Shown here piece after piece: positions 22,464-50,193 of a stretch of DNA of 64,000 nt. The notes under the pieces were generated by a model. It was not told where the DNA came from. It made no database searches and saw only the letters and a list, made by a program, of their open reading frames with translations. Positions within the stretch are counted from its first letter, which is position 1. Every line of letters begins with the position of its first letter. Source of the stretch: a virus; the IMG/VR virus record IMGVR_UViG_3300023235_000015, positions 38,343-102,342 of that record. The stretch is one strand, 5' to 3'. The translations under genes and the position numbers were made by a program.

Positions 22464-22479
22464 CTTTCTATGTCAAATA

Positions 22480-26532: not shown

Positions 26533-29267
26533 AATTCCTTTCTTACTGCCAAGGGTAATTGTTTACAATACCAACCCAAGCTAGAACCGTCCAGCCTGCG
26601 AATGTTACAACTGCTAGGTAAAATGCTAGGTAAATAATATAAAACAAACAACCTAGACAACCTATACCCGTTACTACTCCATTTTCTAAATCAGACATTA
26701 TTATCCTTTCTGATAAACATAATTAGTATAGTCATTTCTTTGCTGCTCTTTTCTTTGCGTTCTTACGAATAGCCTTATCAATAGCCAAAGCACTAAGCTT
26801 GCTAAAGGTTTGAATATCCATAATATCCCACTTTGTATTAGACCTAATATAACTTCTATTGCTCATAATTCCTTTTTTATGGTTTGTCGCTTATTATAAT
26901 TGCTATAGTTATTAAAAGAATCCAAATGTTTAATAACATTGCTTTGATAAAAAATAATTCGTTATTGTACATATTACCAATCTTGTTCTAGATCGCTTGC
27001 ACAATAATTTAGTTCATCTTCTAGAACAGTTACGATTTCTTCTATGTTCTCATGAATACCATTTAGATCATCTTTTGTAATTCCATCAAGCTCATACAAA
27101 AGATCAGCAGCGTCCATTACAATATTTGCCGCTTTACCAACACCCTTAGCAACTTCCCTAATCTCGTAAGGAGAATTGTCTGGTGGATTAAAGTACGGAT
27201 CGTTGTCACTAACACCGGGAGGCAGATTGCCGTTATTTGGGATACCAATACTGTTAGGCATATACTTTCTCCCATTCTCCACTACAATCAGGCTCTACGA
27301 ACTTGTAAGGGCCATGTAGCTCTACAAGCAAACCTTCATCGTAACCAGTACCATACTCAGCAACAGTCCATTCATAGGTTTCTTTTTTAATAGCATAATG
27401 TTCTTTTATTGCGCCAATAGGACTGTCAGCTTCATAAATTTCATCAGTTTCTTTAATAACATTGTCATTAATATTTACAAACAACTTATATCTGTTCATT
27501 AGATTACTTTCTGTAGTAGCTCAATTACCCCATAAATACCCCAACCTAGAGCATTGATAAGGATTAGTATATAAATAAGCATTGCCATCCAAACATTCAA
27601 AGAATAGTCAGCAATAAATCCATCGCCTCTAGGGTTAGTTACATATACTGGTAGACTGTAATTCCATTTACTCATATTTTCCTTTCTACATCTTTTCCAT
27701 AATAGTTTGTAGCTGCTCGCTAATTAAAAATAACATAACATAAACAGAAATCATAAAGCATATTTTTACAAAATTCATTACTTCACAACCCAATCATTTA
27801 GATTTAGTACATCCCAAATTACTTCTCTTACAGCGGTGTCCATTACTTCTCCAACTTCATCATTATAATTAGTTGTAAGGAAACTCGTTACACGTTCAAC
27901 AGCTTCCCAATCAACTTTGCCCCCTGTATATACTAACAGAGAACCTACAATCATGCCAATCGTCTTATTCCCTTCCTCGCTAAACATTTCAAAGCTTTCA
28001 GGAATCTTTTCTTTTACTTTTGTGCTTCCCCAATCATTCATTAGTTCCTTTCAAGAATGGGCCTACATTCCCACTCAACAATTTCTTTTTCTTCGGTTTT
28101 TGTAGGCACATTACTGTAGTCAGGTACTTCGACTGTTTCTGTGCCAACAACTTTCTTTACACAAACTGTTTCTCTATATGTTGACAGACTATACTTCAAA
28201 GTATTCGATAGCGGCTTATGCGCCTTGAAATACTCATCCTTATAATCTTTATCAAAACTACCTAGCTTACTTACCGCGCTACTAAATTTCTCATCTGAGT
28301 ATAGCCAAACATTTGAGCTAATACTAGGGAAAGGTAGATCAGGATTATCTTGGAGAAAGTCGGCCAACAGTCTAAGATCACGAACAGTAGTAATCTTATT
28401 GTTTAGTTCATAAGCTTCCTCTAACTCAGTATAACTAGCCCCAACTTTAGAGCGTGTATCTTCCTTTGGGCTAGTAAGCTCTGTCTTTTCCCAATCAGCA
28501 GTAACTTCTTCAATATCAGATGTTTCAACGTCAGTCATTAGTATGAATTCCCGTCTTTATCTATGCGACTAAATCCGCCGCAAAGTTTATTGATAGTATA
28601 AAAACCATAATTAGTTAGGCTCCAATTACCAAATGCATCTTCTCTAGTATAACCGCGCCTCTGTAGAATCTGAAGCTTACGAAATACTAGCGGTCTAGGA
28701 TAAACCTTATTGAAGTATTCGTGCATCCCTTTAACATCAACTTTGTTATCGTAACCAACTTTGAAGATATAAGCAAGTACAAGTTCATCTGGAATATCAG
28801 CACACTTCATTGGCAGATAAGGATGAGTGATTTTGTTACTCATTATTGCTCCGAATCCTCATTAAGAATTTCCTCTAAAGAAATAATTACATTCTCCAAT
28901 GCTGCAAGTCCACCTTGAAAATGCGCAATTTCATAAGCACTTTTGCCATTAAGTAATTCTTCATATTGTAGCTGATCTGTACCCCATTCAACATTTGTGA
29001 TTAGTTCTTCTAGTAACTGCTCTACTGTATAAGTCATTTGTTATCTCTTTCTTTTTTAGGTAGTACTGTAGCTAAAGCAGCGTAAGCATTAGCTCTACAA
29101 GCATCAACTATTAGATAGCCCGCAGCATTGCCTGACCCTGTAAAGCCAGCGTCAGCTACACTTTTATACTGATTCCAACTAGACCTTCTGCCGTCTAAAT
29201 ACATTTGAGCCATTTCAATTGCTTCTTCTTTAGTTTCACATTTTTCTTCATCCATAACAATCCTTTC

Positions 29268-29756
29268 TTAGAACGACCGTCCGATTAGTATAGCAGGCGT
29301 GGTGCGGTTTAGGCACCACACACCGCTGTTATCCCTCTCGATGTAGTAAACGCGGCTTAGGTTGGCTCTCACCAGCCTCTCAGCGCATCCCTGACAGGGC
29401 CGACTCGATCCCACGTGACCAGTCATGTTCGCATTGAGAGTATATACCAAAATGCTAAGATTAGATTTATCATTAAAATGTCTGATTTTATCTAAAGCAT
29501 CATCCTCAGCATGTATTGAACGTTTCGCGTGGTCAGAATCATCATAGCGAAAATTTAGTGGAATATGAGAAGTACCAGTACTTTCAACGCTTTTAGTTTT
29601 TTCATTAAATATAACAGCGCCAGTTTTAAATGTAAGAATAGTGCTGCGCTTAGCATTTGTGTCAGCATATCTCCATACATAATGATCTAGATACTTAGTA
29701 ATGAGTTCTTCAGGATTCATAATCTTCTTCAAAATCACTTTCAATGTCAAAGTCAA
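29268..29756 (-). CDS. Zinc-dependent cytidine/dCMP deaminase-like protein
   Basis: IHAE and SRPCQGC motifs. Start probably 29720. Confidence 0.8.
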   Translation of the reverse strand: MTLTLKVILKKIMNPEELITKYLDHYVWRYADTNAKRSTILTFKTGAVIFNEKTKSVESTGTSHIPLNFRYDDSDHAKRSIHAEDDALDKIRHFNDKSNLSILVYTLNANMTGHVGSSRPCQGCAERLVRANLSRVYYIERDNSGVWCLNRTTPAILIGRSF

Positions 29757-29954
29757 AGCTTACAGAAATTATGTTAGAAATTTCAGAGCAACTTTGAATT
29801 GTAGCTTCTGCCTCTCGCTTAAGAGGTGCAATTAAATCATCATTGTCTTTGAGAGTTTTTAACGCCTCTTCTTTAAGCATCTGTACAGCATCATACAATA
29901 CGATTGCTTTCTCATAGCTGATAGTTAGTTCTTTTATATCATTTGATTCCATTT

Positions 29955-30326
29955 TTATTTCCATTCCTTTTTGAAATTAGTACCATCATAAAATGATTCT
30001 GATATATTGTCGTGCATGCTAGCTGTGAGTACACTTACGTCATGTTCTTTAGATATAGCTTTTAATAGTTGTTTGCCATATCCTTTACGCCTTTCGCTTT
30101 TACGAGTGTAGAAATTTACTTTATCTCTTGTAACAATAGCCCAAGCCAAAAGCTTTTCATCATTGTCTTTTAGCATGTAAACACGGCCCTTGTTAGAGTA
30201 AGGATAATTTCTAGCTATCACTAATTCATCTAGCATCATACCAGTAGTTCTAAAATTCAGACTTTTACATTTTGTGTAATCATTATAACTTAAATTTTCT
30301 ACGTTTAGCTTCTGTACTTTAGGCAT
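29955..30326 (-). CDS. GNAT-family acetyltransferase
   Basis: Acetyl-CoA motif A (FYT...RRKGYGKQLL) and C-terminal FY. Confidence 0.65.
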   Translation of the reverse strand: MPKVQKLNVENLSYNDYTKCKSLNFRTTGMMLDELVIARNYPYSNKGRVYMLKDNDEKLLAWAIVTRDKVNFYTRKSERRKGYGKQLLKAISKEHDVSVLTASMHDNISESFYDGTNFKKEWK

Positions 30327-31393
30327 TCACTCTCCTAATTGTCATTAGGGTTATGTTTTTTACCATTAGGGCTATATGAACTTTCATGGAGAGAATATTT
30401 ACTTTTATTTATCCAATCCATCCTGCGCTCATAATCTCCTACAATACTTTCAACAACGTCCCAAATAGCCTCCATGTATACTTTAGAGTATTCTGATTGA
30501 GTGGAATCGCTGGTGAACCTTTGTACGGCACGTTTCGCGCCCTCAATCTTTATTTCTGTATCACATTCTGATAATGCTTTATTAAGTGTCATTATTTAAA
30601 TCCTTTTATCCACTGTCGCATTTTTGTGATTTTTAAGCCGGATATTTGAGCGCAAACCTCGCCCGTAGAAGTATTGACAAATTTTGCGTAGTAAGTCCAA
30701 TCTTTAGAATTTTCAGGATCATTTTCTACGCCTGTTTCTATATGATGGCCTTCTTTCATGAGACTACTAAGCTACTTCCTTCTTGGCTCTATCGTTATTG
30801 TGATAAGTTTCTAGCGTGTAAGTACCCTTAAAGCCATCAAAGGACAATACACTGCGCCCCCAACGAAACTTCATATGAGGCGCAACATTATCACCTTCAT
30901 ATTCCTCATGGTATCCATCTACGAAGCCCCACTTTGACATAGCAAGAATCGCCGCGCCAATATTCTTATCAGGATCACTACCATTGAATACGAAACCATT
31001 ACCATTTAGGAATGAATGGTACATATCTAGGTTTGCGTCAATAGCACAACCAATGCATTCATTTCTTTCTCTTACAGTAAGCTCTTTAATTGAACTCATA
31101 TTATACCTTTAGTGTAACGTTGGGGGTGTTATTGACTGCAAATTCATAGATTTGAAAATCATGACGATCAACTAGCATATATCTATTACTAGGTACGTGC
31201 TGCTTATGCTTAATACGGTTTTCAATAATAACAATAGAAACATCTACAGCCTCTTGTACTGTATCGGCTTCAATCCATCCTGCGCCTCCAACAATTGAAA
31301 CAGGGTGATCGTTATAATTCTTGTCATATTCATAATGATCGTTACAAGCATTGTCAAACAACTGGAATCTATTATTAATTAATTCTCTCATAT

Positions 31394-32389
31394 CTAATCT
31401 TTTTTCTTGTATGTATCTTCAGGGGTGTATTCAAAACAAAGGACAGAATCCACAGCTTTTTGAGCCTTACCACTAGCCTGAACAATAAGCTTCTTGTCGT
31501 CCTCTAGCTTACTAATCCATCCATTAATGTAAGCAGTAGAATTAGTCGTCATTTCTTCAGTTTCAATCTCACAAATATTAGTCAAGAAATTGGCTCCAAT
31601 TTCAGCTACCAATTCTTCTTTGCTGTATTTCTCATCGCCAAAGCTATCACCCTTGATTCTATTCAGGCGCGACTCATGACCAGTAGCGTGAATTGACTCA
31701 TGGAAAAGAGTTTTGTAATACTCTTCTTCGCTATGGAATGATTCCTGACTAGGCATTGTAATAGAATCAGTAGACGGACGATAAAAAGCTCTATCGCCAA
31801 GATGCTTAATTTCAGGCTTATCATCCCAATCTACAATAATTTCTTCAGCCCTTTCAATAGGGTTAAATTCAATACCTTCAGGCTTATCAATCTCGATTCC
31901 AAGATTGGTCTGATCAATGTTAAACACGTAAATATACTTCAAGTATGGAATCATAACTTTTTCAGGATCACCATTTTCATCTACTTTGTCTCTACTGTCA
32001 CCCTTAAACATATTCCAATAGGTGATAAGCGTACTCTTTTCGTTCTCAGAAATACCAGTATAAGCATCAGAGTCTTTAACTCGACAAGCCTGCTTATACT
32101 TTTTGTAGCCGTCATTATCGTTTGCGATATTATTACTCTTGCACCAAGCTTTACAAGACAAGCTATCAGCTTGCTTATAAGTAAGCCAAAACGGACTTTC
32201 AAATTCTTTATTAGTTGCTGCAATGTCAAGCAACAGCGGGTTTAGACCCCTGTATGCTTTCTTACTAATGAAATTTCTGTGTGCGCCCAAAGGATTCCAA
32301 GGTTTCTTCCAAGGGATTTTTCCAGATTTGAGCGAATCCACGAAAGCATTAGTGACGCTATCGTATACATCTAGTTTATTCTTAGCCAT
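31394..32389 (-). CDS. ardC: ArdC-like antirestriction ssDNA-binding protein with zincin domain
   Basis: IPWKKPW, YRGLN, WLTYKQ, VFNIDQT, AFYRPSTDSI, HESIHATGH..RL.R and EELVAE motifs. Confidence 0.9.
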   Translation of the reverse strand: MAKNKLDVYDSVTNAFVDSLKSGKIPWKKPWNPLGAHRNFISKKAYRGLNPLLLDIAATNKEFESPFWLTYKQADSLSCKAWCKSNNIANDNDGYKKYKQACRVKDSDAYTGISENEKSTLITYWNMFKGDSRDKVDENGDPEKVMIPYLKYIYVFNIDQTNLGIEIDKPEGIEFNPIERAEEIIVDWDDKPEIKHLGDRAFYRPSTDSITMPSQESFHSEEEYYKTLFHESIHATGHESRLNRIKGDSFGDEKYSKEELVAEIGANFLTNICEIETEEMTTNSTAYINGWISKLEDDKKLIVQASGKAQKAVDSVLCFEYTPEDTYKKKD

Positions 32390-33313
32390 CTTTTATTCAA
32401 ACCTTTCGAGTCAATGGCATTTATAGGATACGGGAAGTATAGCACACTCACCCGCTACAACGTAATGAGGCCGCAAACCTACTCTCAGAGCCAAAATAGC
32501 TCCAAGAGTAAATCTGCGCCACACTATAATATTCTAAATAGAGGACAAAAGACCTCCTACAAACATAATAGCAATAAATAGTGACAGTATTCCGTTATCA
32601 ACCATAGTCATATTGTTCCTTACGCTGCGATAGTTTCTTTACTTCCTTCTACTACTATTATAATTTCATCATGACTAATCATGAATGGGGAATCTTCAAT
32701 AATGCCTGCAATATGAACATGGTTCCCGTTATGTTTATCTACACTAAGAACTTCTCTAGTGTAAACCTCACCATGCGGCAAATATGAAAACTCTATAAAT
32801 TGCCCTTTTTTAATTGTTTTGACGCTTTCCTTGTTCATGGTTCCTCTCTATTGTATTTTTTATGCCAGAGGCATAATCAAGTGCAGCTTTTACACTACAC
32901 TTAATATGCGCCTAAACAGTAACTACATCGCGCTCAGCCCAATAACGAACTTTATTTTTCTCATCATCAATCTTTTTATTGTTGTTATCAATAGATTTCT
33001 TAGCTTCATCTAGCATATGAGGGAAATTAACGTCGCCGTAATACCCCCAACATGAATCAATGAAATTTCCACACTTATCTTCTACAACCCAACCATATAC
33101 TTCGCCTTTAGCCCAAGAGCTAACTTCACCCTTAGAATAGTTATCAAACTCTACGCTAGGGTCGCCAGCATCTTGATCATAGTGAAAGTAGATTGTATGG
33201 TTATTGTATTCTTCACCACTTATTGAGTCAATCATTGTTTTTCTCTCTTTTGTTTTTATATTAGAAGTATAATCAAGTAGTGGATTTCCGCCCACTACTT
33301 AATATACACCTAA

Positions 33314-33844
33314 CTAAACAGGCACACTCTCATTATCCTGTCTTAGAACATCAAACTGCTCTAGTTCAACATCAGCCCAAGTATCAAACGCTTGTGCCAC
33401 AAGAGCAATGTTTTCAGGCAGTTCTACACCAACTACGCCATCATAGTCATCTTCTATAATATCCAAGCCAAGATCATCACAGATATTATGGATGACACTC
33501 TTATCATGAATCATCATTCCCCACGTGCCATAATCATCACTTACGGTTGAATCAAAATTCAGAGCGTTAGCAATAATGCAAGCTTGAGCTTCTTGTGGTG
33601 TACTCATTAGAAGCTCATCAATAACTTCACCCTTACCAGCAACACGAACTTCATTAGCAAACTTTAGAAGCTCATTAATAGAAGCCCTGTTACGGATAGC
33701 ATGTAGATTTTGATAACAACCTTGATTACTTCTAAAGTAAATTTCAAGACTATTACTAACCTCAAACTTTTCTTTGTCTACATAAACTTCGCGGCCACTA
33801 ACAGGATCAACAACAATATGGGTAGGAAAATTACTTTTTAGCAT
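33314..33844 (-). CDS. Hypothetical protein, paralog of 37360..37962
   Basis: Shared VVDPVS.R, AIR.RAS..ELL.FAN..R..G, STP....AC.IANALNF and AFD...D.ELE.F segments. Confidence 0.8.
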   Translation of the reverse strand: MLKSNFPTHIVVDPVSGREVYVDKEKFEVSNSLEIYFRSNQGCYQNLHAIRNRASINELLKFANEVRVAGKGEVIDELLMSTPQEAQACIIANALNFDSTVSDDYGTWGMMIHDKSVIHNICDDLGLDIIEDDYDGVVGVELPENIALVAQAFDTWADVELEQFDVLRQDNESVPV

Positions 33845-34182
33845 TGTTTCTCTTTCTATTTGTTTTATACATTCTATTTAGAAGTATAATCAGACACTAC
33901 ACTTTCATGCAGTGTCTAATATACACCTAACTTAATACATTACGCTAGCTATATATCCCCGTACTTTTTCTTCCTCTACAAAATCAGCGCCCAAAAAGAA
34001 ATCGTAGTCAGTCCAACCATCTACAAATTCCTGAGCATCTTCCAATGTATCAGCTTCAACTTCAATTGTAGTATCTACACCTACAGTAAAGATAGCCATT
34101 GTTTCTTCTCTCTGTTGTATTTATATAAACATCACTTAGAAGCTTAATCATGCTCACTTTTTCAAGTGAACATAATAAACGC

Positions 34183-34950
34183 CTAATAAAGGCTTGAATC
34201 GAAGCAGAAGTGGCCGTCACCGTCAGGACAAATAAACTTCTTAGCTTCATCATCCCACTTGGACTTTCCTTCATAACACCAAAAATCAGTCCAATCTTCA
34301 CAATTAATTTCAGTACCAGTGAATGTTTCACGCGGCCAAGCATTTTCATACTCAACATGCATAAGTTCACCAGCACGATAATCAATAGTTACACGTTCAC
34401 CCTTACGATCATCACAAGTAGCAATAGTAAAAGCATCAGCATCCCATCCAAAACCTTCTTCAAGGACACGAAATACTCTAGGCTTAGTATAACCACCACG
34501 AACATCACAACCACCATGAATTTGTAGAAGGATATACTGCTCACCATCTTCAATACCCTCAAAGTGAGTGTACTGAATTACCTGACTAAGCAGGTTTTCA
34601 CTATTATAAGAGTTTACAGTTCCACCAAGCCAACTTTCAGCATGTTCACCAGCAAACTCTTCCATTTCTACACGCCAAGGCGAATTTTCATCACCTTTAG
34701 CATCAACCCACTCATTGAATTTGGTGTCAAGTTCAGCATCAAACTCTAGCCAACTATCACAGTAATGAAAGATAGAAATTGTTGGACCAAATTCACTAGT
34801 CTCAACTTTAGGTGAGTCAATAAAGGATTGAACTGTTTTATCACGGTTCATTTCCCAATTTCTACCATAAGCACCACCACTATCACAAATATTTCTGCCG
34901 GTCGGTTCGATTAACATACCAGCCAATACTTTTTGAGTTTCTGTAGCCAT
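34183..34950 (-). CDS. Hypothetical phage protein
   Basis: ATG 34950 follows the conserved AGAGAGAGAAA leader; DSGGAYGRNW and LQIHGGCDVRGGYT segments; stop codon lies inside a hairpin copy. Confidence 0.75.
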   Translation of the reverse strand: MATETQKVLAGMLIEPTGRNICDSGGAYGRNWEMNRDKTVQSFIDSPKVETSEFGPTISIFHYCDSWLEFDAELDTKFNEWVDAKGDENSPWRVEMEEFAGEHAESWLGGTVNSYNSENLLSQVIQYTHFEGIEDGEQYILLQIHGGCDVRGGYTKPRVFRVLEEGFGWDADAFTIATCDDRKGERVTIDYRAGELMHVEYENAWPRETFTGTEINCEDWTDFWCYEGKSKWDDEAKKFICPDGDGHFCFDSSLY

Positions 34951-36662
34951 TTGTTTCTCTCTCTTTTTGTTTATACGATTAGAAGTATAGCCATATACTA
35001 CGAAATGTATCATAATTGATCTATTCCGCAGTATATGAAATACGCCTAGTATAATTCAAATACTTCACAATCATTATAGTCTCTTAGACCAAGACCTAGA
35101 TCATCTATAAGGATATCCAATGCCTGATCCATAGCGCGACTATCACTCTCTGCTTCAACAATAACGTTAATCGAGTAGTAATCATATATGTATACTACAT
35201 TGTAAAATTGTACCGTATCATGAAGTTTCATCATTAATATCCAGCTTTCTAATAATAGCCTTAGTTACAGTTTCATTAGTAACCCTGTAAATTCTATCGT
35301 TATCGTAGCCATTTGTATAATCCCAAATGTCAGCTTCATTATAAAGGCCAGCTTCAAGTATCGCTACTACAAACTCTTCAGCAGACTTTATACCTTCAAA
35401 CAAAATGAGTGGACCAAATTGATCACTTCCATCATACCTGCCAGTTACATAAAACCTTACACGGATAGGCCATGACTCTTCTGAATCTAGATTCATTTTA
35501 TCTCTCTATTTTTTTGTTTATTTATAATTAACAATTAGAAGTATAATCAAGTGTTACTCAATTAAGAGCAACACTTAATATACACCTAGTCTCGCATGGT
35601 CAATCCATTATAGCAGGTCTGACGATTGCGCGTTTACTCACCAGATAGGTTCACAAGTATTCCAAACATGTTTTCCATATACTGATGAGCTTCCAGTCTA
35701 GAGTTATGTTCTAGAACATCAACAAAGCCCTGAGAGTCTGTAGATAGAGTCCAATTAGCAACTCTAAAAACATGCAGGCCATCTTCTGTAACACTACCTA
35801 TTTCAGAATCATGCATATTATCTAACCAAATAGAACACATAGCTTCTTCAATAGCTATAAGCCGTTCCTGTATATCATTAACCTGTCTTTTAGGCCATTC
35901 AATTGCAGGATTATTTGCTATTTTAATTATTTCTTCCGGCTTTAGATTATTCATTAGTGAATCACATCGTATTCAACTTTTGGCTCTTTAAAAAGATGCC
36001 ATTTATCATCTTCAATAACATGGGCAGATTTTTCAAGATACTCGCCTTGATAATAGTCAATACAAATTGAACCATCAGGATAACTATACCAATTATCTAA
36101 AAGCTCAAGACCTTCGCCTTCAATAAAATCATGAAACTCTTTTTCAGTTTCAAAAATTTCAGGCGTTTGAGTAATAATATGAAATTTTCTTTGCCCATCT
36201 TCAGACAAAATATCATTTTCATCATCATTATACCAATAACTATCAATAATATTTACCTTAATCATTTCTTCTCTCTTTTCTTTTGTTTATTAATTAGAAG
36301 CTTAGATATCTGCTACCTAAAAGATAGCAGATACACTAAACACCTAGTTAGAGTAAGAGTCAGTAAGTGAAAAGCTAATTGAGCCTCCAACAGTTTCTTG
36401 GTTATATGAACCAGTACTATCAAGTGCGTCAATAACATTGATAGCATTGCAACCATCAGTAACTTCACCAATAAAAGCTCCAACCATAATCAGATCAGAC
36501 TTATCTTCACTAAACAGGTTCATATCATCAATAAGTTCGTCATTGATATTCTTAATTACAACATTCATGCTTGGCATTTGTTTTTCTCTCTTTTTGTTTT
36601 GTATTTATATCAGTTAGAGGATTAATCAAGCGCCGCTATTTCTAACGACGCTTAATAATTAC

Positions 36663-37277
36663 CTAACTAGCTTGAAAACTCTCAAGCCACTCAATCAACG
36701 CATCTCCCATATCTTCACTAGCATGGAAAAAATATTGATCAATATTAGTATAGCCTTGTGGGCCTTCTTCAACTTCAACATTGAGTTCTACAGGGCCATC
36801 TTCATCATCTATGTCACACTCAGACCAAAAATCATAAACATCTTCATTAGTGATGCTTACACCTTCAGGAATAGCTTGTGCGAACATAAGCGGCCAATTT
36901 TGAGAGTATTCATTACTTACTCTACACTCATCACCCTCAAAGATAATCTCAGCAATGTAAATCAAGTTATCGCAAAGATTAAACTCATCAGAAAGCATTT
37001 CTCTAAGAAGCTTAGGCGAAAGTTTAACAGACCAAAACTTGCGACCATCTTCTTCATGAACCTTAAGAGCTTTATCAATCAATCCGCCCTGCTTCTTAAT
37101 GCCTTTAATTGTAGACTCAGTAGCAAGACAACTAATAGCACAAGCTTTCCAACTCTCAACTTCAGTCTTACCATTAGTTGAGTAGTTGATTTTACCATAA
37201 TTACGACGAGCAACATGATCCAATTCCTTATGCTCAGTAGCACGACGAACTAGAACATCTTTATTCTTGATAATCAT
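36663..37277 (-). CDS. Hypothetical protein in the hairpin array
   Basis: Conserved leader upstream; TAG stop lies within hairpin 36614-36666. Confidence 0.7.
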   Translation of the reverse strand: MIIKNKDVLVRRATEHKELDHVARRNYGKINYSTNGKTEVESWKACAISCLATESTIKGIKKQGGLIDKALKVHEEDGRKFWSVKLSPKLLREMLSDEFNLCDNLIYIAEIIFEGDECRVSNEYSQNWPLMFAQAIPEGVSITNEDVYDFWSECDIDDEDGPVELNVEVEEGPQGYTNIDQYFFHASEDMGDALIEWLESFQAS

Positions 37278-37359
37278 TTGTTTCTCTCTCTTTTGTTTTT
37301 ATATTAGAAGTATAATCAAGTAGTGGATTTCCGCCCACTACTTAATATACGCCTAACTT

Positions 37360-37962
37360 TTATACAGCGTTAGCATTGAACTTTTCAAGTTCATAATCAC
37401 AAAATGAATCAAACGCGCTTGCTGCATGACCAATTGGCAGAGGCAGAATGATTGAAGAATTATAATAAACTTCAACTTCAGTCTCATCAAGAAACTCGCC
37501 ATCATCATCATAAAGTTCTTCTGAATCTGTATTATAGTTATGAAAAACTTGAAGATTAAGATCAGAGACTTCAATTGCGTTAGCAACTGCCTCATTCTCA
37601 ATAGTCATTTCCCAAAGATTTTCACCAACTTGATCGCCATAATCGCTACCTTGAATCTGAGATTGAAAATTCAAAGCATTAGCAATAAGGCAAGCACTAG
37701 AATCTGTAGGTGTACTAGGAATAAGTTCATGCAGCATATCATTAGAACCACCAACTCTACGAATATCATTCGCAAAAGCAAGAAGCTCATCAACACTAGC
37801 GCGTTCTCTAATAGCATTAAGATCATCATGTTCTACATACTCTTCAATATGCCATTCAACATCTTCCGCACTCATGTTGTCAAACTTAATTGTGTTTGTA
37901 GTAGTAATAATAATCTTACGGCTACTAACAGGATCAACTACGACATACTTATTTTTATTCAT
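37360..37962 (-). CDS. Hypothetical protein, paralog of 33314..33844
   Basis: Same shared segments as its paralog; conserved leader upstream. Confidence 0.8.
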   Translation of the reverse strand: MNKNKYVVVDPVSSRKIIITTTNTIKFDNMSAEDVEWHIEEYVEHDDLNAIRERASVDELLAFANDIRRVGGSNDMLHELIPSTPTDSSACLIANALNFQSQIQGSDYGDQVGENLWEMTIENEAVANAIEVSDLNLQVFHNYNTDSEELYDDDGEFLDETEVEVYYNSSIILPLPIGHAASAFDSFCDYELEKFNANAV

Positions 37963-40900
37963 TGTTTTCTCTCTCTATTTGTTTTTATTTTATTAGAAGA
38001 ATAAACATACACTACTATTTCTAGCAGTGCATGGTAGTCGCCTAATTTATTCAATTCCGCAAGCTGAAAAGAACGTATCTCTATTAAAATATTCATTATC
38101 AGATTCCAGAATTATTGCTAAGTTGTAAGCGAAGATAACTTTATCTTCTCTGTCATTGAACAAATGAGACTGTTCTACAAACAATCTAGCAAGCGCCCTA
38201 TAATGTTTTTTACTCATTTTAGATATCCTTCTCCAAAACAGTCTACTACTAGACTATTTTCGTGGTCAAATACTTCTTGAAGTGGCATATCATTGTATGC
38301 CGGACCACTTTTAGCATCTGGCAGAGCAACAATAAGCAGACCTTCATTAGCCATACAGACAGCAGTTTCTACATTCAAACACCTATCATAAGGCTCGTCA
38401 TATTTACCATGCTCAAAAGCAATAGCAACAATTTCGCACCCTTCATAAGGCTCAGTCCATTCAGGCTTAATCTGAATATCACTTATGTTCATTATTCTTC
38501 TCTCTCTATTGTTTTTATATTATCAGAGGATTAATCAAGTGCTGGTTTTTGCGCCAGCACTTAATAATCACCTAACTCTTTTTATTTACTATTACTATCA
38601 AACTAGGTATAACTACAGTTACAAATATAACCGCACCTGTAATATCTAAAATGTTGATAATTTTTTCGTCCATAGTATATCAACACTTACATATAAACGA
38701 TATAGTTTTCAATGTAATCCATTGCGGATTCATTAATCCATTCCTCACAAAGTTTATTGAACTCTTTGTAAGTAACTTTTGTAGGCTCGCCTTTAGCATA
38801 GTCATAGAAATTGATACAATCAAATATAATAGCTTTACTAAGACCAATATTGATATAAACTCCACCATCATAGTAAAACTTGAAATTATAACCTTCATAG
38901 ACAATAGACTTTTCACGCCAATCTACTATCTCATCTTCTTTAGACATTTTCTTCTCTCTATTGTGTTTTTATTAGAAGCTTAATCAAGTAGTGGATTTCC
39001 GCCCACTACTTAATAAACGCCTATTCGTAATACGGTTGTTCTTTTAGTTCATGGTCGCCAAGAGATTCTTCTGAATAGAAAACAGTATCATCACTACCAG
39101 CCATAGAATATCTATCAGGCTTTGTAATGTTTTCAGCAGAATTAAGCGCCCTAGCAATCTTAGAAGCATATTCTTGATTATCAGCTATTGCCAACAGTCT
39201 AACATGCATAGGATTATCATACCACCATCCACCTTCTTCTGGACCGCCATATTCACGAGACACGGAATATTCACTAATGTATATCATGCGATATTTTCTG
39301 ACCACTTTGGAACATTCCACATTACATCACTAATAGCAAACTGTGGAACATTACTAATACTATCGTAATCTTTAGCGTTCATACGAATTACAAAAAGAAT
39401 GTATTCGTTCATTTATTTCTTCTCTCTATTGTTTACATAATCAGAGGCTTATACATACGCTATTTTCATAGCGCATGTTATAAACACCTAATCTTCTCTA
39501 ATAGCGCCAGTAATCATTAGCACAATTCCTACAGATACTTGAACAGTACCTATTGCTATATACCATGAAATACTATCAGGTTCAGCACTAGGAATATTAC
39601 TAAGCATGTAAGCGCCCCATAATATATTGAACAGTCCTATTAGTTTATTAGCCATATACAAGCTCATCAAATATACTTACTTGAAGAATAGCGTCAGCAT
39701 CCCAAGCATCAATGTTGCCAGCATTATTTTCTTTACTAGCATTGTTGATATTTTGTGCCATTGTTCCATTAATTTTCATATCGCGGCTGTTGATCTTTCC
39801 AAGACCCACAACTACAGTATCCAAATTAATATGGAATACTTCACCAACAGGGTTATCTTCCCATTCATCCCAAACTACAATTGTAGCTGTGGAAGAATCA
39901 AGATCATAACTTTCTAGTCGTCGCCAAGTATTAGAACCAAAATCTTCAACTATACAAGTGAAAACATCAGTCAAAAACTTATGACGAATATCGAATTCAG
40001 ACATATTTCCTCTCTCTATTGTTTTTTTACTTAGAAGCTTATAGATACTCTACTTTTCAGCAGAGCATCTTATAAACACCTAACTAAAACGCTGTGATTG
40101 TGTATCTCATATTATTATTTGTTACAGCTTCACCATCAGCTAACACTTCAACAATGTCTCTGACAATGTTTTCAGACCATTCAGCATAATCAATGGCATG
40201 AGTTTCCAAAGACTTTTTAATCTCTGGCGAATAAAAACTGTTAAGAGTCAAACTTTCGACTTTTTCACTAGTAACGAAAACCCTAGTGTCATGGTCAATT
40301 AAACAGTATTCCATATCGGGCATAATTTTCTTCTCTCTATTGTTTTTTATCAGAAGTATAATCAAGTACCCGTAAACGGATACTTAATATACGCCTAAGA
40401 ACTTATGGAGTCCAGCGTTTACTGCTTTCCAAATTGTTAACTTTCTGAAGAAGTCTTTCTATCGTAGAATCTTTGATATTTATGATATCTTCCAGCATTT
40501 CAGTCTGCTTAATCAAACAATCAATTGTGTCGCTTTTTATATCAATTGTTTCACGCTGAATATTTATGATCTGTTCTTGTTCACTCATTTTATCTTCTCT
40601 CTTTTGTTTTTTATTCAGAAGCTTAATCAAGTAGTAGTTTTTGCGCCACTACTTAATAAACACCTAATCCCAAAGGTTTACAATCCACAACATGTTCATA
40701 ACTCCAACTCCAAAACAAACACCAGACAACCAATCAAATCCATAGAAAAGCAAAATCCAACTACAGATAAGAATGATTAGATTGGCTATCGTTGCAATAC
40801 CGCACTTACTATTCATTATCTTCTCTCTTTTGTTTTTATTCAGAAGTTTATACATACGCTACATAATAGCAGCGCATGTTATAAACACCTAAATCAGCGT

Positions 40901-42552
40901 TCAATCATTCGCCAAATTAGACTTCTTTTTGTATTTTCCTTGTTTTTCAGAGCAGATTCTGCACTTTCAACATCAGAGTAAACTTCAACATCATCCCAAA
41001 TTGCTTGAGGATGATTAGGCTTACTTTGAACAACGAATTCACTCATTTTATCTTCTCTCTTTTTGTTTTTATTCAGAAGTTTAATCAAGTAGTAACACTA
41101 ACGGGAACCGACATTGCCGGTCGCTATTATTTCGCGCCACTACTTAATAAACGCCTAAAAGTCTGCTTTTACAGAAGTAAATCCTACAGTAACTTCTTGA
41201 CCAGCATAACGCCTAGCCTTAAAGGTATCATCAATGATGATAACAGCCTTACCTTTTTCAACTTTTACAAAATCGGCGGTGCAGCCGCTAAGATACTTGG
41301 GGCGAATGTTTTGAATCATTACTTTATCGCCATTTTCAAGCGACGAAATACTGACCCTAGAATAAGCCTTTTTTCTATCATTGATAACATCAATGATTTC
41401 TTCTAGATGGTTGTCATACTGACCATGAAAAACATCTTCCAAAAGTTCAGCAAGTTCACCATTTGTCTTTGTCATTTTTTCTTCTCTCTTTTGTGATTCA
41501 TTGAACTATTAGAAGCTTAGATATACCCTACATGGTGCAGGGTATACGCTAAACGCCTAGATCATACCTAGATCAATAAGCGGAGAATTATTACCACAAG
41601 GACAAGTACCATCAGGTTCAACAATACAACCACAGTCTAAAGTAGCAATACCATCAGACATAATGGCTTCCAATTCAGCTAATTGTTCATCAGTCATTTT
41701 TCTTCTCTCTTTTGTTTACATTATCAGAAGCTTAATCATGCTCACATATTTCTATGTGAACATAATAAGCACCTAAATCAGTTCAGAATGACCACAGAAT
41801 TGCTACCAGAGCTTTTCTGTTCCAAATCCTAAACCAATTCATTTTGTTACAATAGTGAGGTCTTTCAGCTTTTTGTCATTCATGAGTTGCTGAAAGTCAA
41901 ACAGCGACATAATCGCTGCATGCTGCTTATTACTTCTAACCATTGTTTCCTTCTCTCTATTGTTTGTTTCTATGGTGAGCCTTTTCATAAGGACTCAAAG
42001 TAATTCACCATTTGCATAGTGAACTAATTTGAATACTTACTAAATCTTCTCAATGGTGAAGGTATTGTTCAGAGTAGTGTTTTCCGCCTTGAACAAAATA
42101 TCCTTCAACACTTTTGCAGCCAATTCACTTTCACAACCAAACTTCAATTGATCCGTTGAATCTTTTTCACTCACAATTACATGGTAAGCATATCCAAGCA
42201 TTGTTACCATGCTCCCATATTATATCCAACAACAATCACTATAGAAGCAATAGTTATCAGTATGGTGAGAACTCCAAAGAACTTACACTCAAAAATGAAT
42301 GTATCTTTTTCGCTCATGTTTTCCTCTCTATGGTGAATCATTTTCAATGGTGAGTATTTGTTACATGGTAAATAATTCGACCGCGTGTTTAGCAATAAGT
42401 AATACTAAATATTATTCAGCGTTAACATTATTGATTAGACCTAAACAATTAGGTATGATAAGTCATTTTAAGTGACTTTCCTACTTTTAAACTGGCAGTT
42501 CTAATTTTACTGTATCCAGTCGTGGTCTAAACTTTTCTCTCGTTTACAAAAT

Positions 42553-42592
42553 TGCCCACGTAGGAATCGAACCTACTTTAACCTTTATGGGC
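42553..42592 (-). ncRNA. Minimal tRNA-like element (acceptor stem and T-arm only)
   Basis: Minus strand reads GCCCAT-AAAGGTTAAA-GTAGG TTCGATT CCTAC-GTGGGC-A. Confidence 0.55.
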
Positions 42593-42947
42593 GAGACATT
42601 CAGCCGAATATTTTACTTTCGGCAATGTTGCGAAGTGCTGATATTACACCATCAACATCTTCGTTCTTGACATTCTTTTCAATGGCATCTGCCATATCAA
42701 AGACTGAATCAGAACTAAGTTTTGTTAGTCCATCTTCTAGATCATCTAGATCATCTATGTATATCTGCATGGTTCCTCTCTATGGTGAATTGTTTTCAAT
42801 GGTGAGTGTTTAAAAGTGAATCAAAAGTCTTGGATTCTTTTGATCCACTTTTAAACCTTCACTATTTGTTGCATGGTCAGCCCTGGCCGCAAGTGCCAGT
42901 AATTTTTACTGCATGGTGAGTGTTTTTCGCACCGATAATAATTCTAG

Positions 42948-43019
42948 TAGCAGTAGTAGGAATCGAACCTACTTAGTTAATTTGTGAGAGCAAATTATTA
43001 TTCCTAAACCATTACCGCT
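42948..43019 (-). tRNA. Degenerate tRNA-like gene (72 nt), anticodon unclear
   Basis: 7-bp acceptor stem AGCGGTA/TACTGCT plus discriminator A; canonical T-arm GTAGG-TTCGATT-CCTAC; arm TAATTTG-CTCTCA-CAAATTA with a 6-nt loop. No clear D-stem and no encoded CCA. Confidence 0.55.
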
Positions 43020-43510: not shown

Positions 43511-43966
43511 TACTTCTCCGTCCTGGGATCAATTGCCAGTAGTATTTTTGCGCCTAGAATATAGTCACAATCAACTACCTTCAATCTACATGCAGCATGT
43601 AGTGAATAATCACTCAATTAGCATATAGACCCATTCTCTCATTGATAACTACAGATAAAGAGTCTAAAGGAAGAATCAGTCCATCCTGGTATCAATTGCC
43701 AGTAGATTGATTCTTCACTTAGAATCTTCAATCTTGATCTATTCGGAATACATGTCCGAACTTCTTGCAGTGGAATATCTCACCACAATCTGCCTTTTCA
43801 AGATCGCGGATAACTTCCCGTAATTCAGTATTCAGATACGAAGAAAAGTAACAATATCCGTTTACTCTTGCAGTAGTAATTACATGCTGGGAATACTTGA
43901 ATTTTTTCCCATCATTCTTATCCCGCGCAGTAATTCTCGCCATATTCTTTATCCTTCCTATAAAAA

Positions 43967-44076
43967 TTTTTTCCTGCGCCCTGGGGAGCGGCGCCAGTAA
44001 TTTTTTCCTGCGCCCTGGGGAGCGGCGCCAGTAATTTTTTCCTGCGCCCTGGGGAGCGGCGCCAGTAATTTTTTCC
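43967..44076. repeat. Perfect 34-bp tandem repeat, about 3.2 copies
   Basis: Unit TTTTTTCCTGCGCCCTGGGGAGCGGCGCCAGTAA at 43967, 44001 and 44035. Confidence 0.97.
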
Positions 44077-44088
44077 CTTACCTAGTGC

Positions 44089-44127
44089 AAAAAAAAAACC
44101 CCGCAACCTATGAAAGCGTTGCAGGGT
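44089..44127 (-). terminator. Intrinsic terminator after the 44140..44703 gene
   Basis: Minus strand ACCCTGCAAC-loop-GTTGCGGGGT followed by a long T run. Confidence 0.85.
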
Positions 44128-44139
44128 AATTTTCTCTTT

Positions 44140-44703
44140 TTATGCAGTCTCTTCAATCGCCTTCTGGCGCTTCGCTGCATCCTTCTCGATTTTGGCAACC
44201 TTTGCCTTTTCCTGCTGGGCAGCCTTTGCCTTTTCCTTACGCTCTGTGACTTGAACGTGAGTGAGACTCGACCTCTCCAACCCGTTGATCTTGATCGGCT
44301 GAGACTTGCGCGGGACTGACTTCCCGTTTTCATCGACTACCTGTTTACCTTCGGCATCCTTCACAGAACGTTTAGTCCGGTCTGTGAATGAGACGCTATC
44401 GGCCGCATTCTCTACAACCTTCCAGACATTGCTGGGGTCGGCCGCAGTCGCTGCCTTTGCAGCTTCATGCGCGGGCTGCATTGTGATAGCAGTCACTCCG
44501 GCATCGGACTTTCCGTCCTTGATCGCCTTCAGGATCTTGCAGTCATCTGCATCGAATGCGATAACAGCGCCCACAGGATGATCCTGCACCCCGGATACTC
44601 CCAGACCTTCAACGATCTGTGACTGCACGAATGCAGCAGCAGCAACATTGATCTCAGTCGAGCGAGCGTTTTCCGAACGTACTTTACTTGTTACTTTTGC
44701 CAT
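44140..44703 (-). CDS. Hypothetical Ala/Lys-rich protein, monocistronic
   Basis: AGAGAAAG RBS, own terminator, and codon usage visibly more GC-rich than the rest of the phage. Confidence 0.75.
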   Translation of the reverse strand: MAKVTSKVRSENARSTEINVAAAAFVQSQIVEGLGVSGVQDHPVGAVIAFDADDCKILKAIKDGKSDAGVTAITMQPAHEAAKAATAADPSNVWKVVENAADSVSFTDRTKRSVKDAEGKQVVDENGKSVPRKSQPIKINGLERSSLTHVQVTERKEKAKAAQQEKAKVAKIEKDAAKRQKAIEETA

Positions 44704-45778
44704 TTTAATATTCTTTCTCTTTTACAGTAGTCGGACTGTTAACCGTTTCCCTAACAGGGAACTAAGACATAGGTTGTCGCGTCCTGGAGAGCCTCCCCAG
44801 TAAAAATCTGCGCCCATATCTTAGTTCCCAATTAGTGAATAATCACTAATCAGGAAAAGAGAAGAGAAGAAAGTGCAGTCCGGTCTAGACCTATCTTTCA
44901 CTTAGGCTCAATTAGCTAATTCTGTATCGAAAAGTCGCCTGTATCACGATCTTCCTCAAGTTCACTAATCACGTTCTAATGACCATCACCTTAAGAGTCT
45001 GTAGTCCTATTGACTTTCGCACGGATAGGTAAGTCTCACCCATCTAATTGAGCACTGCATTCTTCATCCCTCATCTACCTAATCACTATTCCTAGTGAGT
45101 CTCCACGCCATATGACTTTCGGCGGCCCGGTAAAGGGAAGAAGGTTCCGGCGGATATTTGGCCGAAACAAAGAGGCCGGAACTCCCATCTCTGGGGCGAC
45201 ACCTCTTTTTGAATCAATCTCCACCCTATACCATACGCCACCTGGATGCAACCGCCAGTAAAAAATTGGCTCTGTGTGCAGGATTCTCAGACCGTGCCAT
45301 TGAAGAAACAGAATGTTCACTACTGGCAAGCACCAGCCGGCAAGTCAATTTTTTGGCTTTGCTACTGGTAATCGCCGCCAGGGCTGATGCTATCCCTGCA
45401 CAGGGACGTTCAGCCATCCCCTAGCGGATAACCCTCGCGGCGGGAAAACATGCCTGTGCAGCGCTCTCAGATGCCTTTACTGGCAATTGAGGTCGGCAGA
45501 AAGTGACCACAAATGCATGGACGATACCCCTTTGTGCGAATTGTCACAAGCGGCCTCGATGTACCTATGCTCATAATTCCTCCCCATAGTTTAAGTTTCA
45601 TAATAGTAGTATAGTACGTTACTATCATTCCTACGACTTTCCCCAAGTGCCACAAAGTTGAAAAAGCGCCACAAGATTTGAATGCCAGAGCCAAAAGACA
45701 CAAAATGCCCCTAGGGTTTTATAAGGTTATTAGGCGCATTTTCAAATCTACGTAGTACAATTCTGAGAATTACACAAG

Positions 45779-46177
45779 CTAATAGATACAAAACCGGAGT
45801 AACGAGTAAGATTTTATATCTAATTGTTCTGTAGTCATACCTACATCGTAATTTTTTTTAGGTGATGGATCAAAAACGACTTTATCATCAAACATAACAA
45901 TACAATGATTTTTGCCTATTAGATTCAGAGAGGGTACTGAGGCGATCCAATATCCTGCTGTGAAAAACCATACACCCTCTAAGATAGCGTTCTCCGCAAT
46001 CTCAATAATTGTGATTCCAAACTTTTCTAATAAATCAGCGTTCCATTGTCGGAACCACTCATCACCATAATTACCATATGAATGTAGACAGGGTATTTCA
46101 TCTGAATGAACTTCTAAGATAGAAGCTATACATGCCGCGAAACAATTTCTGTCTGTTGTTTGTTTAATTCCTATCAT
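45779..46177 (-). CDS. Small papain-fold (C39-like) peptidase-like protein
   Basis: Q.....CFAACIASIL, HCIV and VFDP give a Gln/Cys/His/Asp pattern. Confidence 0.5.
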   Translation of the reverse strand: MIGIKQTTDRNCFAACIASILEVHSDEIPCLHSYGNYGDEWFRQWNADLLEKFGITIIEIAENAILEGVWFFTAGYWIASVPSLNLIGKNHCIVMFDDKVVFDPSPKKNYDVGMTTEQLDIKSYSLLRFCIY

Positions 46178-47270
46178 CTAAATCTAACATTCTTTGTAAG
46201 TGGTAAGATGCCTTTATTGATTCATTTTTACGTTCTACAGCATCATACGTAGTGTATATACTTTGTAAGTGGTAAGCTCTCCACTTCTTATGCCAAGCGT
46301 ATTTAAGTTTATTCATTATTGTTTTTTGTAAACTCGGCGGCAATTTTCTTAATCTTATTCAATACAGGCGGCACTCTATCTTCCCAAACTTCAGGAGCAA
46401 CATATCCTAGTTGGTTAATTAAAGTTTCAATTTGTTGAAATGCTTCTGTTTCTTTACCCATTATATTTCCTTTCAGCAGTATTAGCTTCTGTTCCTTCGA
46501 ACCTTAGAATATGACCAGCGCCAGCACAAAGCATACAGACCTTGCTGCCTTGTTTACCAACGCCTTTACATCTAGGGCAAATTTTTCTATTAGTTTTCTT
46601 ATTCATAAAATATTAATTCGTTACCGCAATTAGGACAAGCATCCCAATCTTCATCATCATAAATATTATGACAAGACATACACTCAACCATGTTCCAGTT
46701 CATTATCTAACTTTCTTTCTAGTTCTGTAATTTGTTTTGTTAAGCTTAGAATTTTTATTTCTGATTGTGTTATTCGTGTCCAAGCCGGACCAAGTGCTGC
46801 ACCAGCCTCCATTCTAAAAGTACTCTTTTGGGATTCGTCAAATTGCTCCCAAAAATCAGAAGTAGAAATACCTTCCATATTTTGTAAATCAGCTAAATGT
46901 AATGCTCCTAATTCTGTTAGCTCTTTAAATGTCATATAGCTATCACTTTTACAGCAGAACCTAAAGATATATCAAGCTTTACTTTAATTCTTTGTGAGGC
47001 GCTTCCTCTATTATTGAGATAAGCGCGGTTTTTATCATTAGCCATAATTGCTCTAAGCTCTGATATTTCTTTATCTGTTAATTGTATTTGTACTTTATTC
47101 ATCATTGCTTTCTTGGTTGGGTTGGGTGTGCCACTGCTGCAAGGCACGAGTCGCCGCTGCCTTCGCTTCCGCGCTGATCGGTGGGCAGTCGGGGTTTGGT
47201 GTGATCTTGGCGGGCTTGGCTTCGCCGGACCTCACCCTGAATGCCCCGGCTGTGTTGATCTCTATGCCGC

Positions 47271-47678
47271 TCATGCGTCTACCTCCTGGTTGGGTTGCCC
47301 GGCCTCCCGAAACGCATCGGCGGCGAAGAGGAGATCCTCGCCATCGGGTCGGCCCGTGAAGTAGTCGGTTACCTGTTCGGCTAGAGCTTCGGCGGCTTGG
47401 AGTCGGGCTTTCAGCTTGACCTCACGGGCACGGGCTAGGGACAGGTGGTGCTGCCACGCGTTTGACCCCGCTTCCAGTTCCTTGATCCGGGCTTCGGCCC
47501 TTTCCGCGTCGGCAAAGTTGGCGTCGGACTCTGCCTGTAGGGAGTCGGCGATTTCCCTCCACTCCCGGTCGTTCTCGGCTAGGGCTGCTTCGGCTTCTAC
47601 CGCCTTGGCCCATTTGCCGCCTATGTCCTGAACATGGTCAGACTGATCCCATACCGCGTACCGCGTCAGTTCATTCAT
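47271..47678 (-). CDS. Coiled-coil hypothetical protein in a GC-rich patch
   Basis: AERAEARIKELEA heptads; GC-rich codons unlike the flanking genes. Confidence 0.65.
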   Translation of the reverse strand: MNELTRYAVWDQSDHVQDIGGKWAKAVEAEAALAENDREWREIADSLQAESDANFADAERAEARIKELEAGSNAWQHHLSLARAREVKLKARLQAAEALAEQVTDYFTGRPDGEDLLFAADAFREAGQPNQEVDA

Positions 47679-48177
47679 CGTCTACCTCTCATCATTTCAG
47701 TCATATTGTCTTTCAAATAGTTTATTACTTGTACAGGAGAAAGAGAACCGCTCCCGCTGCCGTGTGTCGCGCAAGGGCAAGTAACAGGTATCATATCATA
47801 ATCGTCAGGGGAAGCGTTACAGCCGGGACAGTAGTAATGCGGTTCGCCCCTTAAATTTTGTACCTTATTAAACTTCGTCGCTAAATACTTCATTTATTTT
47901 TTGTCCCCGCTTCCATTCTCTTAGAGTTGCATCTCTTACAGTTATTACTCCTGAAGTAGACCTAAAACTATATGAATGAACTTTATCACCTACTAAAATA
48001 TCTACAGTAGCTTCATAACTAGGAGCAACTGATTTGTAGGGTAAGTATTCATGCCCAAAAAAATCTTCATCAGGGAATACAGCTTTAAATTCTACGCTAA
48101 CTGGTATGTGCGGATTGTCTTTATTTGTATTTATCATAGTACAATGTGTATATATCGAAAAATTGCACAGCTATTCA

Positions 48178-50158: not shown

Positions 50159-50193
50159 GGAGTGGCTTACTCACACCCGCTAAGCGGAGTATA

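Follow-up and report, generated by a model that had tools for sequence, protein, structure and literature searches.

The window analysed here is a 64,000-nucleotide (nt) stretch, bases 38343-102342 of the 102,342-bp IMG/VR virus record IMGVR_UViG_3300023235_000015, which is rated 100% complete. On its minus strand, at window 32865-41776, an array of about 26 small open reading frames (ORFs) carries 20 copies of a composite unit, a hairpin followed by a purine-rich leader. We conclude from the covariation, an invariant G.U pair and the strand asymmetry of the copies that the hairpin is a structure selected on the sense RNA, with a sequence-specific lower stem. The units of hairpin and leader are also a recombination seam, as seen from the footprints that lie at them, and in this they resemble the PeSL stem-loop cassettes of T4-type phages. 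With moderate confidence, we read the hairpin as an RNA processing or stability signal that doubles as this recombination seam; a long message is probably cut at the hairpins or shielded by them to give pieces the size of a gene, and genes are probably swapped at these points. The hairpin family itself is new, with no match in Rfam, and the type of signal, so read, is already known from the phages T7 and SP82. The array is the hyperplastic accessory gene region of a 102-kb siphovirus, and its genes are probably expressed early.

A hairpin selected on the sense RNA

A preliminary description of this DNA had counted 19 such elements. All 19 were found at their places on the minus strand by direct reading and a pattern scan, and a covariance model (R1) built from 17 of them gave 20 matches over the whole genome (E 1e-16 to 5e-7), raising the true count to 20 by one further copy at 32865-32915. 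Every match lies on the minus strand within 8.9 kb, with none elsewhere in the genome. Each copy folds into a single long hairpin of 49-55 nt with a stem of 21-24 pairs, except for two copies with insertions, which are confined to the apex (41073-41158 and 34979-35049). The folding energies per copy range from -18.7 to -32.9 kcal/mol, with z values of -4.1 to -8.4 against dinucleotide shuffles, and for each of the 20 copies at most one of 200 shuffles folded equally well. The mean folding energy is about -23.6 kcal/mol on the minus strand, compared with about -12.8 on the plus strand.

In an alignment of 17 copies, 88.5% of the cells were paired, compared with 35-46% when the partners were slid, and 13 of the 23 pairs showed double changes. 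Two short metagenome contigs with a copy of the 255-amino-acid (aa) array protein (L040 and L041, 56-57% identical) contain three and two further matches to R1, respectively (E 2e-14 to 3e-4), giving a set of 25 copies from three phages. In this larger set, 90.2% of the cells were paired (36-45% in the slid controls) and 14 of the 23 pairs were compensatory. Among the paired cells, 106 were G.U and 18 were A.C, and the folding strand is therefore the mRNA-sense strand.

In the lower stem, counting from the base, pairs 3, 4 and 5 are A-U, G-C and G.U in 25/25 copies, and the hairpin ends read UAGGYG... and ...CYUCURA in all 25. Pair 5 is followed by a pyrimidine-pyrimidine (Y-Y) mismatch, which is C/U in 11 copies, U/U in eight, U/C in three and C/C in three. 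Above it come a five-pair covarying segment (U-A/A-U, U-G/U-A/A-U/C-G) and a one-base bulge, which most copies have on the 3' side. The upper stem of about 13 pairs is free in sequence and keeps its pairing. Pairwise, the copies are 79% identical in the base and 45% in the upper stem, and clustering of all 25 at 85% identity gives 21 groups. The picture given in the preliminary description, namely a conserved base under a freely varying paired top, folding of the minus strand with G.U mismatches and seven copies with a GAAA loop (Table 1), was thus borne out, and the covariation check that it had proposed came out positive. Its remark that this is not a described family also agrees with our search of the window, in which no Rfam family reached its gathering score. 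Only sub-threshold look-alikes of microRNA precursors were found (E<1), the best being mir-753 with 28 bits against a cut-off of 62 bits.

The hairpin is closely fitted to the genes on both sides. In 11 of the 20 copies, the upstream ORF ends with the TAG that lies within the conserved UAGG, and the stop lies 3-9 nt upstream of the hairpin in eight more, leaving hairpin 15 with its 45-nt gap as the exception. Stop codons in all three frames were found in 16/20 hairpins, compared with 38% of shuffles. On the other side, a linker of 0-14 nt connects each hairpin to a purine-rich leader of about 26 nt, in which an ATAAA(A)AC box is followed by AGAGAGA at Shine-Dalgarno distance. The ATG is reached 23-38 nt after the end of the hairpin, and the ATAAA-type box lies 23-27 nt before it in 18/20 units; hairpin and leader together form a conserved unit of about 90 nt. 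Both the stop codon usually abutting or lying inside the 5' UAGG and the 3' arm running into a conserved leader and ATG had been noticed earlier, and both descriptions stand. Other genes of the phage have AGAAAGGA-type ribosome-binding sites, and the host therefore uses Shine-Dalgarno pairing. When whole units were folded, the leader remained mostly unpaired (mean unpaired probability 0.73).

We also considered a translational-coupling switch, in which masking of the 5' arm would free CUUCU to pair with AGAAG of the leader. This was rejected because the accessibility of the ribosome-binding site (RBS) would change only from 0.73 to 0.54, which is too weak. Another structure concerns the same leaders from a distance: a stem-loop at window 50100-50158 on the minus strand has a 12-bp stem and a pyrimidine loop of about 19 nt complementary to the AGAGAGA/AGAAAGGA leaders, those of the array included. 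It has a folding energy of -40 kcal/mol in a 120-nt context (z -3.2), with an extended -10 at 50188-50196, and could act as an anti-RBS RNA or imitate the 3' tail of the 16S RNA.

Transcription and proposed processing at the units

None of the 20 hairpins is followed by a U-run; each has an A-rich tail instead. A scan of the array for intrinsic terminators and sigma-70 promoters gave no enrichment over shuffles, the terminator scan picking up one hairpin copy only, which is the chance level. Since no copy combines a GC stem with a U-run, intrinsic termination was ruled out, as the preliminary description had already argued from the missing U-tract. A sigma-70 promoter within the unit was tried in several registers and is ruled out by the spacing of 23-38 nt to the ATG. 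Likewise, an archaeal TATA-box reading of the ATAAA box was rejected, because the genome has bacterial extended -10 promoters, Shine-Dalgarno sites, DnaB/primase and an intrinsic terminator. The promoter-like class of this genome consists of a GC-rich upstream segment followed by TGnTATAMT and lies, where checked, 50-120 nt before gene starts, as do the sites at 56757, 50196, 47798, 32444 and 25599. Its only member in the intergenic gaps of the array, at 35607-35615, stands just ahead of hairpin 15 (35535-35589), and the "one long early transcript" proposed earlier has to be qualified at this point.

Given the lack of U-tracts and the near absence of internal promoters, the host RNA polymerase would read through the units; an array with about one promoter and twenty efficient terminators would be silent. 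The same argument bears on the idea that the unit is a non-canonical transcription signal, either a terminator or attenuator that works without U residues or a promoter for a modified host polymerase. The ATAAA-type box does hold its distance to the ATG while the distance from the hairpin varies, and T4-type PeSLs join a stem-loop and a promoter at the equivalent position (PMC4122927). However, no -35/-10 pair fits at any allowed spacing, the last T of a -10 is often missing from the box, and AGAGAGA at Shine-Dalgarno distance means that the leader must be in the RNA. Furthermore, a clear promoter class of the phage itself and a canonical terminator are present at other places in the genome, and no phage polymerase or sigma factor was found. 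We therefore hold such a signal to be highly improbable. The family scans of the phage genome gave no match for RNase III, a sigma-70 family protein, a tyrosine recombinase or a Y1 transposase, nor for a T7-type RNA polymerase, for which the scan had no positive control.

The canonical terminator mentioned above lies upstream of the array at window 44089-44126 (minus strand), where a textbook GC stem with ten T follows the gene at 44140-44703. Directly after it and ahead of the first small gene, at about 43965-44076 on the same strand, there are three tandem repeats of about 38 bp (an A-run plus ACTGGCGCC...CCAGGGCGCAGG), and related CTGG-N9-11-CCAG motifs occur on the minus strand at about 43700, 43545 and 42900. 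These repeats and motifs could be operators or unusual promoters that start transcription of the array.

In a read-through transcript, the hairpin would act between cistrons as a signal for processing and stability. In a stem of about two helical turns, the conserved mismatch and bulge would favour a single-strand nick by RNase III. After such a nick, the upstream message would keep a protective hairpin at its 3' end, and the downstream message would start at the polypurine leader. The near-constant stem length despite full turnover of the upper stem fits a helix-measuring enzyme. The most likely reader would be the RNase III of the host, although we propose RNase III in this role only tentatively.

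The early precursor of T7, 7 kb in length, has five RNase III sites; an idealised RNase III substrate has 22 bp, and mismatches or bulges lead to single-strand cuts that leave stabilising 3' hairpins (PMC3867540). The T7 signals (R0.3, R0.5, R1, R1.1 and R1.3) are, like those of the array, intercistronic hairpins in a polycistronic early message without terminator function. Their geometry recurs here in the 21-24 pairs (about two turns), the 1x1 Y-Y mismatch and the one-base bulge, and so does their placement, 20/20 copies lying between co-oriented ORFs that are separated by no terminator and hardly any promoter. Unlike T7, the array has 20 copies instead of five, a conserved lower stem with an invariant G.U, a stop codon in the stem and a conserved leader attached to it. 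T7 has no sequence similarity to the array. The early mRNA of SP82 is reportedly cut by Bacillus RNase III as well, and the polypurine RBS is said to act there as a 5' stabiliser that protects the downstream RNA. Likened by description only, SP82 shares with the array repeated, mutually similar hairpins in early RNA that are followed by a purine-rich ribosome-binding sequence, but the phage of the array is an unrelated salt-lake siphovirus. The SP82 studies by Panganiban and Whiteley (1983) and Hue et al. (1995) are cited in PMC4838370 and PMC7509114.

Several observations weigh against a processing signal. The bulge changes sides between copies, being on the 5' side in about five, and a fixed single nick site is not obvious. 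No promoter driving the first half of the array, and no transcription start of the array, was found. The nearest IMG/VR relative by terminase (G001, 51% identical) has a homologous small-gene region in which six shared genes stand in scrambled order, and this region lacks the R1 hairpin; its gaps contain a sigma-70-type promoter, then a GC-rich hairpin, then a GGAAAGGAAAA leader (Table 1). These hairpins of G001 and the promoter ahead of hairpin 15 may suit the role of a 5' stabiliser or insulator and not that of a cut mark. Finally, the conservation of the lower stem exceeds what E. coli RNase III is known to need, which would equally suit a reader that recognises the sequence, or copies made alike through gene conversion.

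Two rival readings take up these points. According to the first, the hairpin is not cut at all and is a passive decay barrier and translation insulator. It would block 3' exonucleases on the upstream message and, after an upstream cut, 5' exonuclease or 5'-end-dependent decay on the downstream one, and it would keep the ribosome-binding leader unstructured, the base being conserved by concerted evolution and not by recognition. The hairpin abutting the stop codon, the largely open leader and the copy behind a promoter-like site agree with such a barrier, as does the different hairpin between promoter and leader in G001, which fits a role in the 5' untranslated region; moreover, near-identical units behind diverged paralogues show that homogenisation occurs. 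A barrier has no need, however, for an invariant G.U, a constant Y-Y mismatch and a near-fixed stem length across 21 sequence types in three phages, and gene conversion alone would have homogenised the upper stems too, yet they are 45% identical. We consider a purely passive barrier unlikely.

According to the second, a dedicated sequence-specific factor of the phage or host docks at or cuts the basal G.U/Y-Y box. Among the small proteins that lack an annotation, this factor could be a regulator that binds RNA, an antiterminator or an endoribonuclease resembling Cas6. The lower stem with its 79% pairwise identity and invariant pairs under a free top is what such a factor would read, most array proteins have no family assignment, and the loop at 50100-50158 with its complementarity to the array leaders hints at post-transcriptional control. 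Nevertheless, family scans of ten array proteins yielded no candidate, and G001 handles homologous genes without the hairpin element. We hold a dedicated factor to be very unlikely.

Recombination footprints at the units

Some footprints are found within the array. Hairpins 33261-33313 and 37304-37356 differ at 1/53 nt, whereas the paralogous genes that precede them are only 34% identical, and the same hairpin type also stands behind an unrelated gene at 38972-39024. Units have therefore been exchanged or homogenised independently of the genes. The type of hairpin 18 (33878-33930) recurs with at least 85% identity in the metagenome contigs at L040:210-262 and L041:1509-1560, each time in another gene context. 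In L041, the hairpin-bounded units are ordered differently from those of the window. In L040, a gene for an HNH endonuclease lies behind a truncated copy of the start of the 255-aa gene, the hairpin, leader and tail of the HNH gene are duplicated on both sides, and of the hairpin behind the 255-aa gene only the 5' half is present. The HNH gene (L040:555-1223) is free-standing, has its own extended -10 and is inserted into a hairpin unit. The comparison of gene order between hairpins that the preliminary description had called for thus revealed permutation, duplication and gene insertion at hairpin and leader borders. As a by-product of its conservation, the unit of about 90 nt would act as a portable homology block at which gene units are duplicated, permuted, invaded and homogenised.

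Searches of GenBank phages with megablast and blastn gave no relative at the DNA level, and the 255-aa array protein has only distant homologues there (about 40%), in actinophages. Over 57 IMG/VR loci and 78 of 80 metagenome loci encoding homologues of this protein, R1 gave no match except in L040 and L041; closer relatives are known as proteins only (P0002, 69% identical and on a 55-kb contig, P0003 and P0005). An exact-pattern scan of IMG/VR gave 20 single matches, none of which folds, as expected by chance, and among the matches listed for species-representative genomes there were likewise only single, non-folding chance matches. Three loci found via ArdC (L031-L033) belong to unrelated phages and have no hairpin element. 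The more distant relatives L121 and L122 contain repeated promoter-like CTTTAC...TATnCT units. A tandem 21-bp repeat lies within a small ORF of G001 (G001:24745-24860). De Bruijn assemblies made from the source samples end precisely where identical hairpin copies lie. In the Logan contigs of four salt-lake DNA runs, which show these breaks, no joints were found; a few contigs of low depth share the leader alone or diverge at a hairpin base.

Gene exchange at stem-loops is known from the PeSLs of T4-type phages, in which a sigma-70-like promoter (-35, 17 nt, -10) stands behind a terminating stem-loop (PMC2839356, PMC4122927). Like the array units, PeSLs combine a stem-loop, a Shine-Dalgarno sequence and an ATG. 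Both stand between the small genes of a hyperplastic region, and insertions, deletions and exchanges have their borders there. Unlike PeSLs, the units leave no room for a promoter and have no U-tract, and their stem is much longer and selected on the RNA strand. We rejected identity with PeSLs because promoter and terminator are both lacking; the Shine-Dalgarno sequence with ATG and the position at exchange borders are shared.

The preliminary description had also named integron attC sites as an analogue. These are recombined as the bottom, antisense strand and have the core sites RYYYAAC ... GTTRRRY. The resemblance lies in imperfect hairpins that have unpaired bases and a top that varies over a conserved base, located directly 3' of promoter-less, co-oriented ORFs. 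However, the similarity of the folds is one of shape, as the better-folding strand of the array is the mRNA sense strand, and the array lacks an integrase and an R-box core and has a ribosome-binding leader within the repeat. PF00589 was absent from the whole phage genome, with a positive control in 14/14 genomes. Given the missing integrase and core sites and the folding of the sense strand, identity with attC was rejected. Repeated extragenic palindromes of the REP/BIME type and operon stabiliser hairpins also stand just after stop codons and are able to protect upstream mRNA. The array copies differ from them in that all have the same orientation, occur in a single phage array and come with a leader. 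REP/RAYT identity was rejected since the RAYT family PF01797 is absent from the phage and the genome-collection matches listed are single and do not fold.

These comparisons bear on the possibility that the unit works at the DNA level, its hairpin forming in single-stranded DNA and being recognised by a site-specific enzyme in an attC-like or REP/RAYT-like manner, with the array as a platform for mobile cassettes. The conserved base, variable paired top, extrahelical base, mismatch and position after ORFs do recall attC, and units are permuted and duplicated in relatives. On the other hand, both the tyrosine recombinase (PF00589) and the Y1 transposase (PF01797) are missing from a genome rated as complete, no GTTRRRY-type core is visible in the copies, the well-folding strand is the sense strand of the mRNA, the leader travels with the hairpin as fits homologous exchange, and the matches listed for species-representative genomes are isolated chance matches. 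A DNA-level cassette site is in our view most improbable. Processing and cassette exchange might also be joined in a promoter-less plug-in cassette system, in which one dedicated factor, be it an endoribonuclease, an RNA-binding protein or a recombinase of the folded strand, reads the G.U/Y-Y box. This is quite unlikely. If it were true, any ORF placed between two units would be stopped, insulated, excised as its own message and given an RBS, and the same site would drive the exchange of cassettes between co-infecting phages, a logic of CRISPR repeats and integrons applied to mRNAs.

Table 1. Hairpin units of the array and related features (window coordinates unless prefixed; bits, score with model R1; dG, folding energy in kcal/mol; z, against dinucleotide shuffles)
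Feature	Position	Strand	Remarks
Hairpin 1	41724..41776	-	GAAA loop; leader continues to ATG 41697; 69.5 bits; dG -24.7, z -7.5
Hairpin 2	41509..41560	-	own TAG is upstream ORF stop; ATG 41475; 48.2 bits; z -6.1
Hairpin 3	41073..41158	-	86 nt, extra apical stem-loop at tip; ATG 41046; 52.1 bits; dG -32.9
Hairpin 4	40840..40892	-	5'-side bulge; ATG 40816; 59.1 bits; z -7.1
Hairpin 5	40615..40667	-	TAG is stop; ATG 40588; 69.8 bits
Hairpin 6	40350..40398	-	ATG 40323; 59.8 bits
Hairpin 7	40031..40083	-	GAAA loop; ATG 40004; 57.8 bits; z -7.6
Hairpin 8	39441..39491	-	GAAA loop; TAG is stop; ATG 39412; 53.4 bits
Hairpin 9	38972..39024	-	upper stem as in hairpins 12 and 19, preceding gene unrelated; ATG 38947; 68.9 bits
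Hairpin 10	38523..38575	-	TAG is stop; ATG 38492; 68.4 bits
Hairpin 11	37993..38045	-	GAAA loop; most divergent middle stem; ATG 37962; 62.1 bits
Hairpin 12	37304..37356	-	1/53 nt different from hairpin 19; ATG 37277
Hairpin 13	36614..36666	-	GAAA loop; TAG is stop; ATG 36577; 65.8 bits
Hairpin 14	36294..36347	-	TAG is stop; ATG 36265; 46.6 bits; z -7.3
Hairpin 15	35535..35589	-	sole copy not abutting a stop codon; ATG 35496; 63.7 bits; z -8.4
Hairpin 16	34979..35049	-	71 nt, apical insertion; orthologue L040:365-414; ATG 34950 (255-aa gene); 36.1 bits
Hairpin 17	34136..34186	-	GAAA loop; TAG is stop of 255-aa gene; ATG 34099; 64.3 bits
Hairpin 18	33878..33930	-	GAAA loop; ATG 33844; like L040:210-262 and L041:1509-1560
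Hairpin 19	33261..33313	-	ATG 33235; 72.2 bits
Hairpin 20	32865..32915	-	absent from the earlier list; ATG 32838; 51.7 bits; z -4.8
Leader, example	33236..33260	-	purine-rich; ATAAA(A)AC box, then AGAGAGA at Shine-Dalgarno position
Promoter-like extended -10 (TGCTATAAT)	35607..35615	-	GC-rich upstream; in 45-nt gap just 5' of hairpin 15
Promoter-like extended -10 class	56757, 53558, 50196, 47798, 35615, 32444, 29295, 25599	-	TGnTATAMT after GC-rich segment
Promoter-hairpin-leader cassettes of G001 (L036-L039), examples	G001:14176-14284, 18773-18866, 28359-28508, 29831-29949		

Genome setting and significance

The genome comes from salt-lake metagenomes and has a G+C content of 38%; among RNA runs, none was listed as containing this stretch. 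It codes for a 3053-aa tape-measure protein, tail proteins, a terminase, a portal-like protein, a split DNA polymerase, a UvsX-like recombinase and a tRNA nucleotidyltransferase and has a block of tRNA genes. From the tape-measure and tail, terminase and replication genes together with the tRNA block, we conclude that it belongs to a large siphovirus of a bacterium. An ArdC-like anti-restriction gene lies directly downstream of the array. At the Rfam gathering score, genome positions 20001-38400 (L010) contain 20 tRNAs, and RNase P RNA and tmRNA were not found there. An odd tRNA-like gene, to which ARAGORN assigned no definite anticodon, lies at window 42947-43019 on the minus strand; the sequence of its T-arm is repeated about 400 nt downstream (about 42560-42590, minus strand), with the rest of the tRNA absent. 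The first and last 100 nt of the genome (1-100 and 102243-102342) are by eye much richer in GC than the mean, and GC reaches 43-47% in window 44001-48000. The GC-rich ends and the stretch at 44-48 kb suggest a mosaic origin or an assembly end effect.

No part of a phage genome changes faster than the accessory regions with their anti-defence and host-takeover genes, and how their tiny genes are expressed and exchanged is understood in few model phages only. The array offers a clean and testable RNA motif for intercistronic processing in an uncultured lineage because there are 20 copies, the sequence types across three phages number 21, one wobble pair never varies and the stem includes a stop codon. 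The unit could also be used as a compact natural insulator part in synthetic operons. For the biology of these phages, the array suggests that RNA signals can replace the repeated promoters of relatives while still serving as recombination seams.

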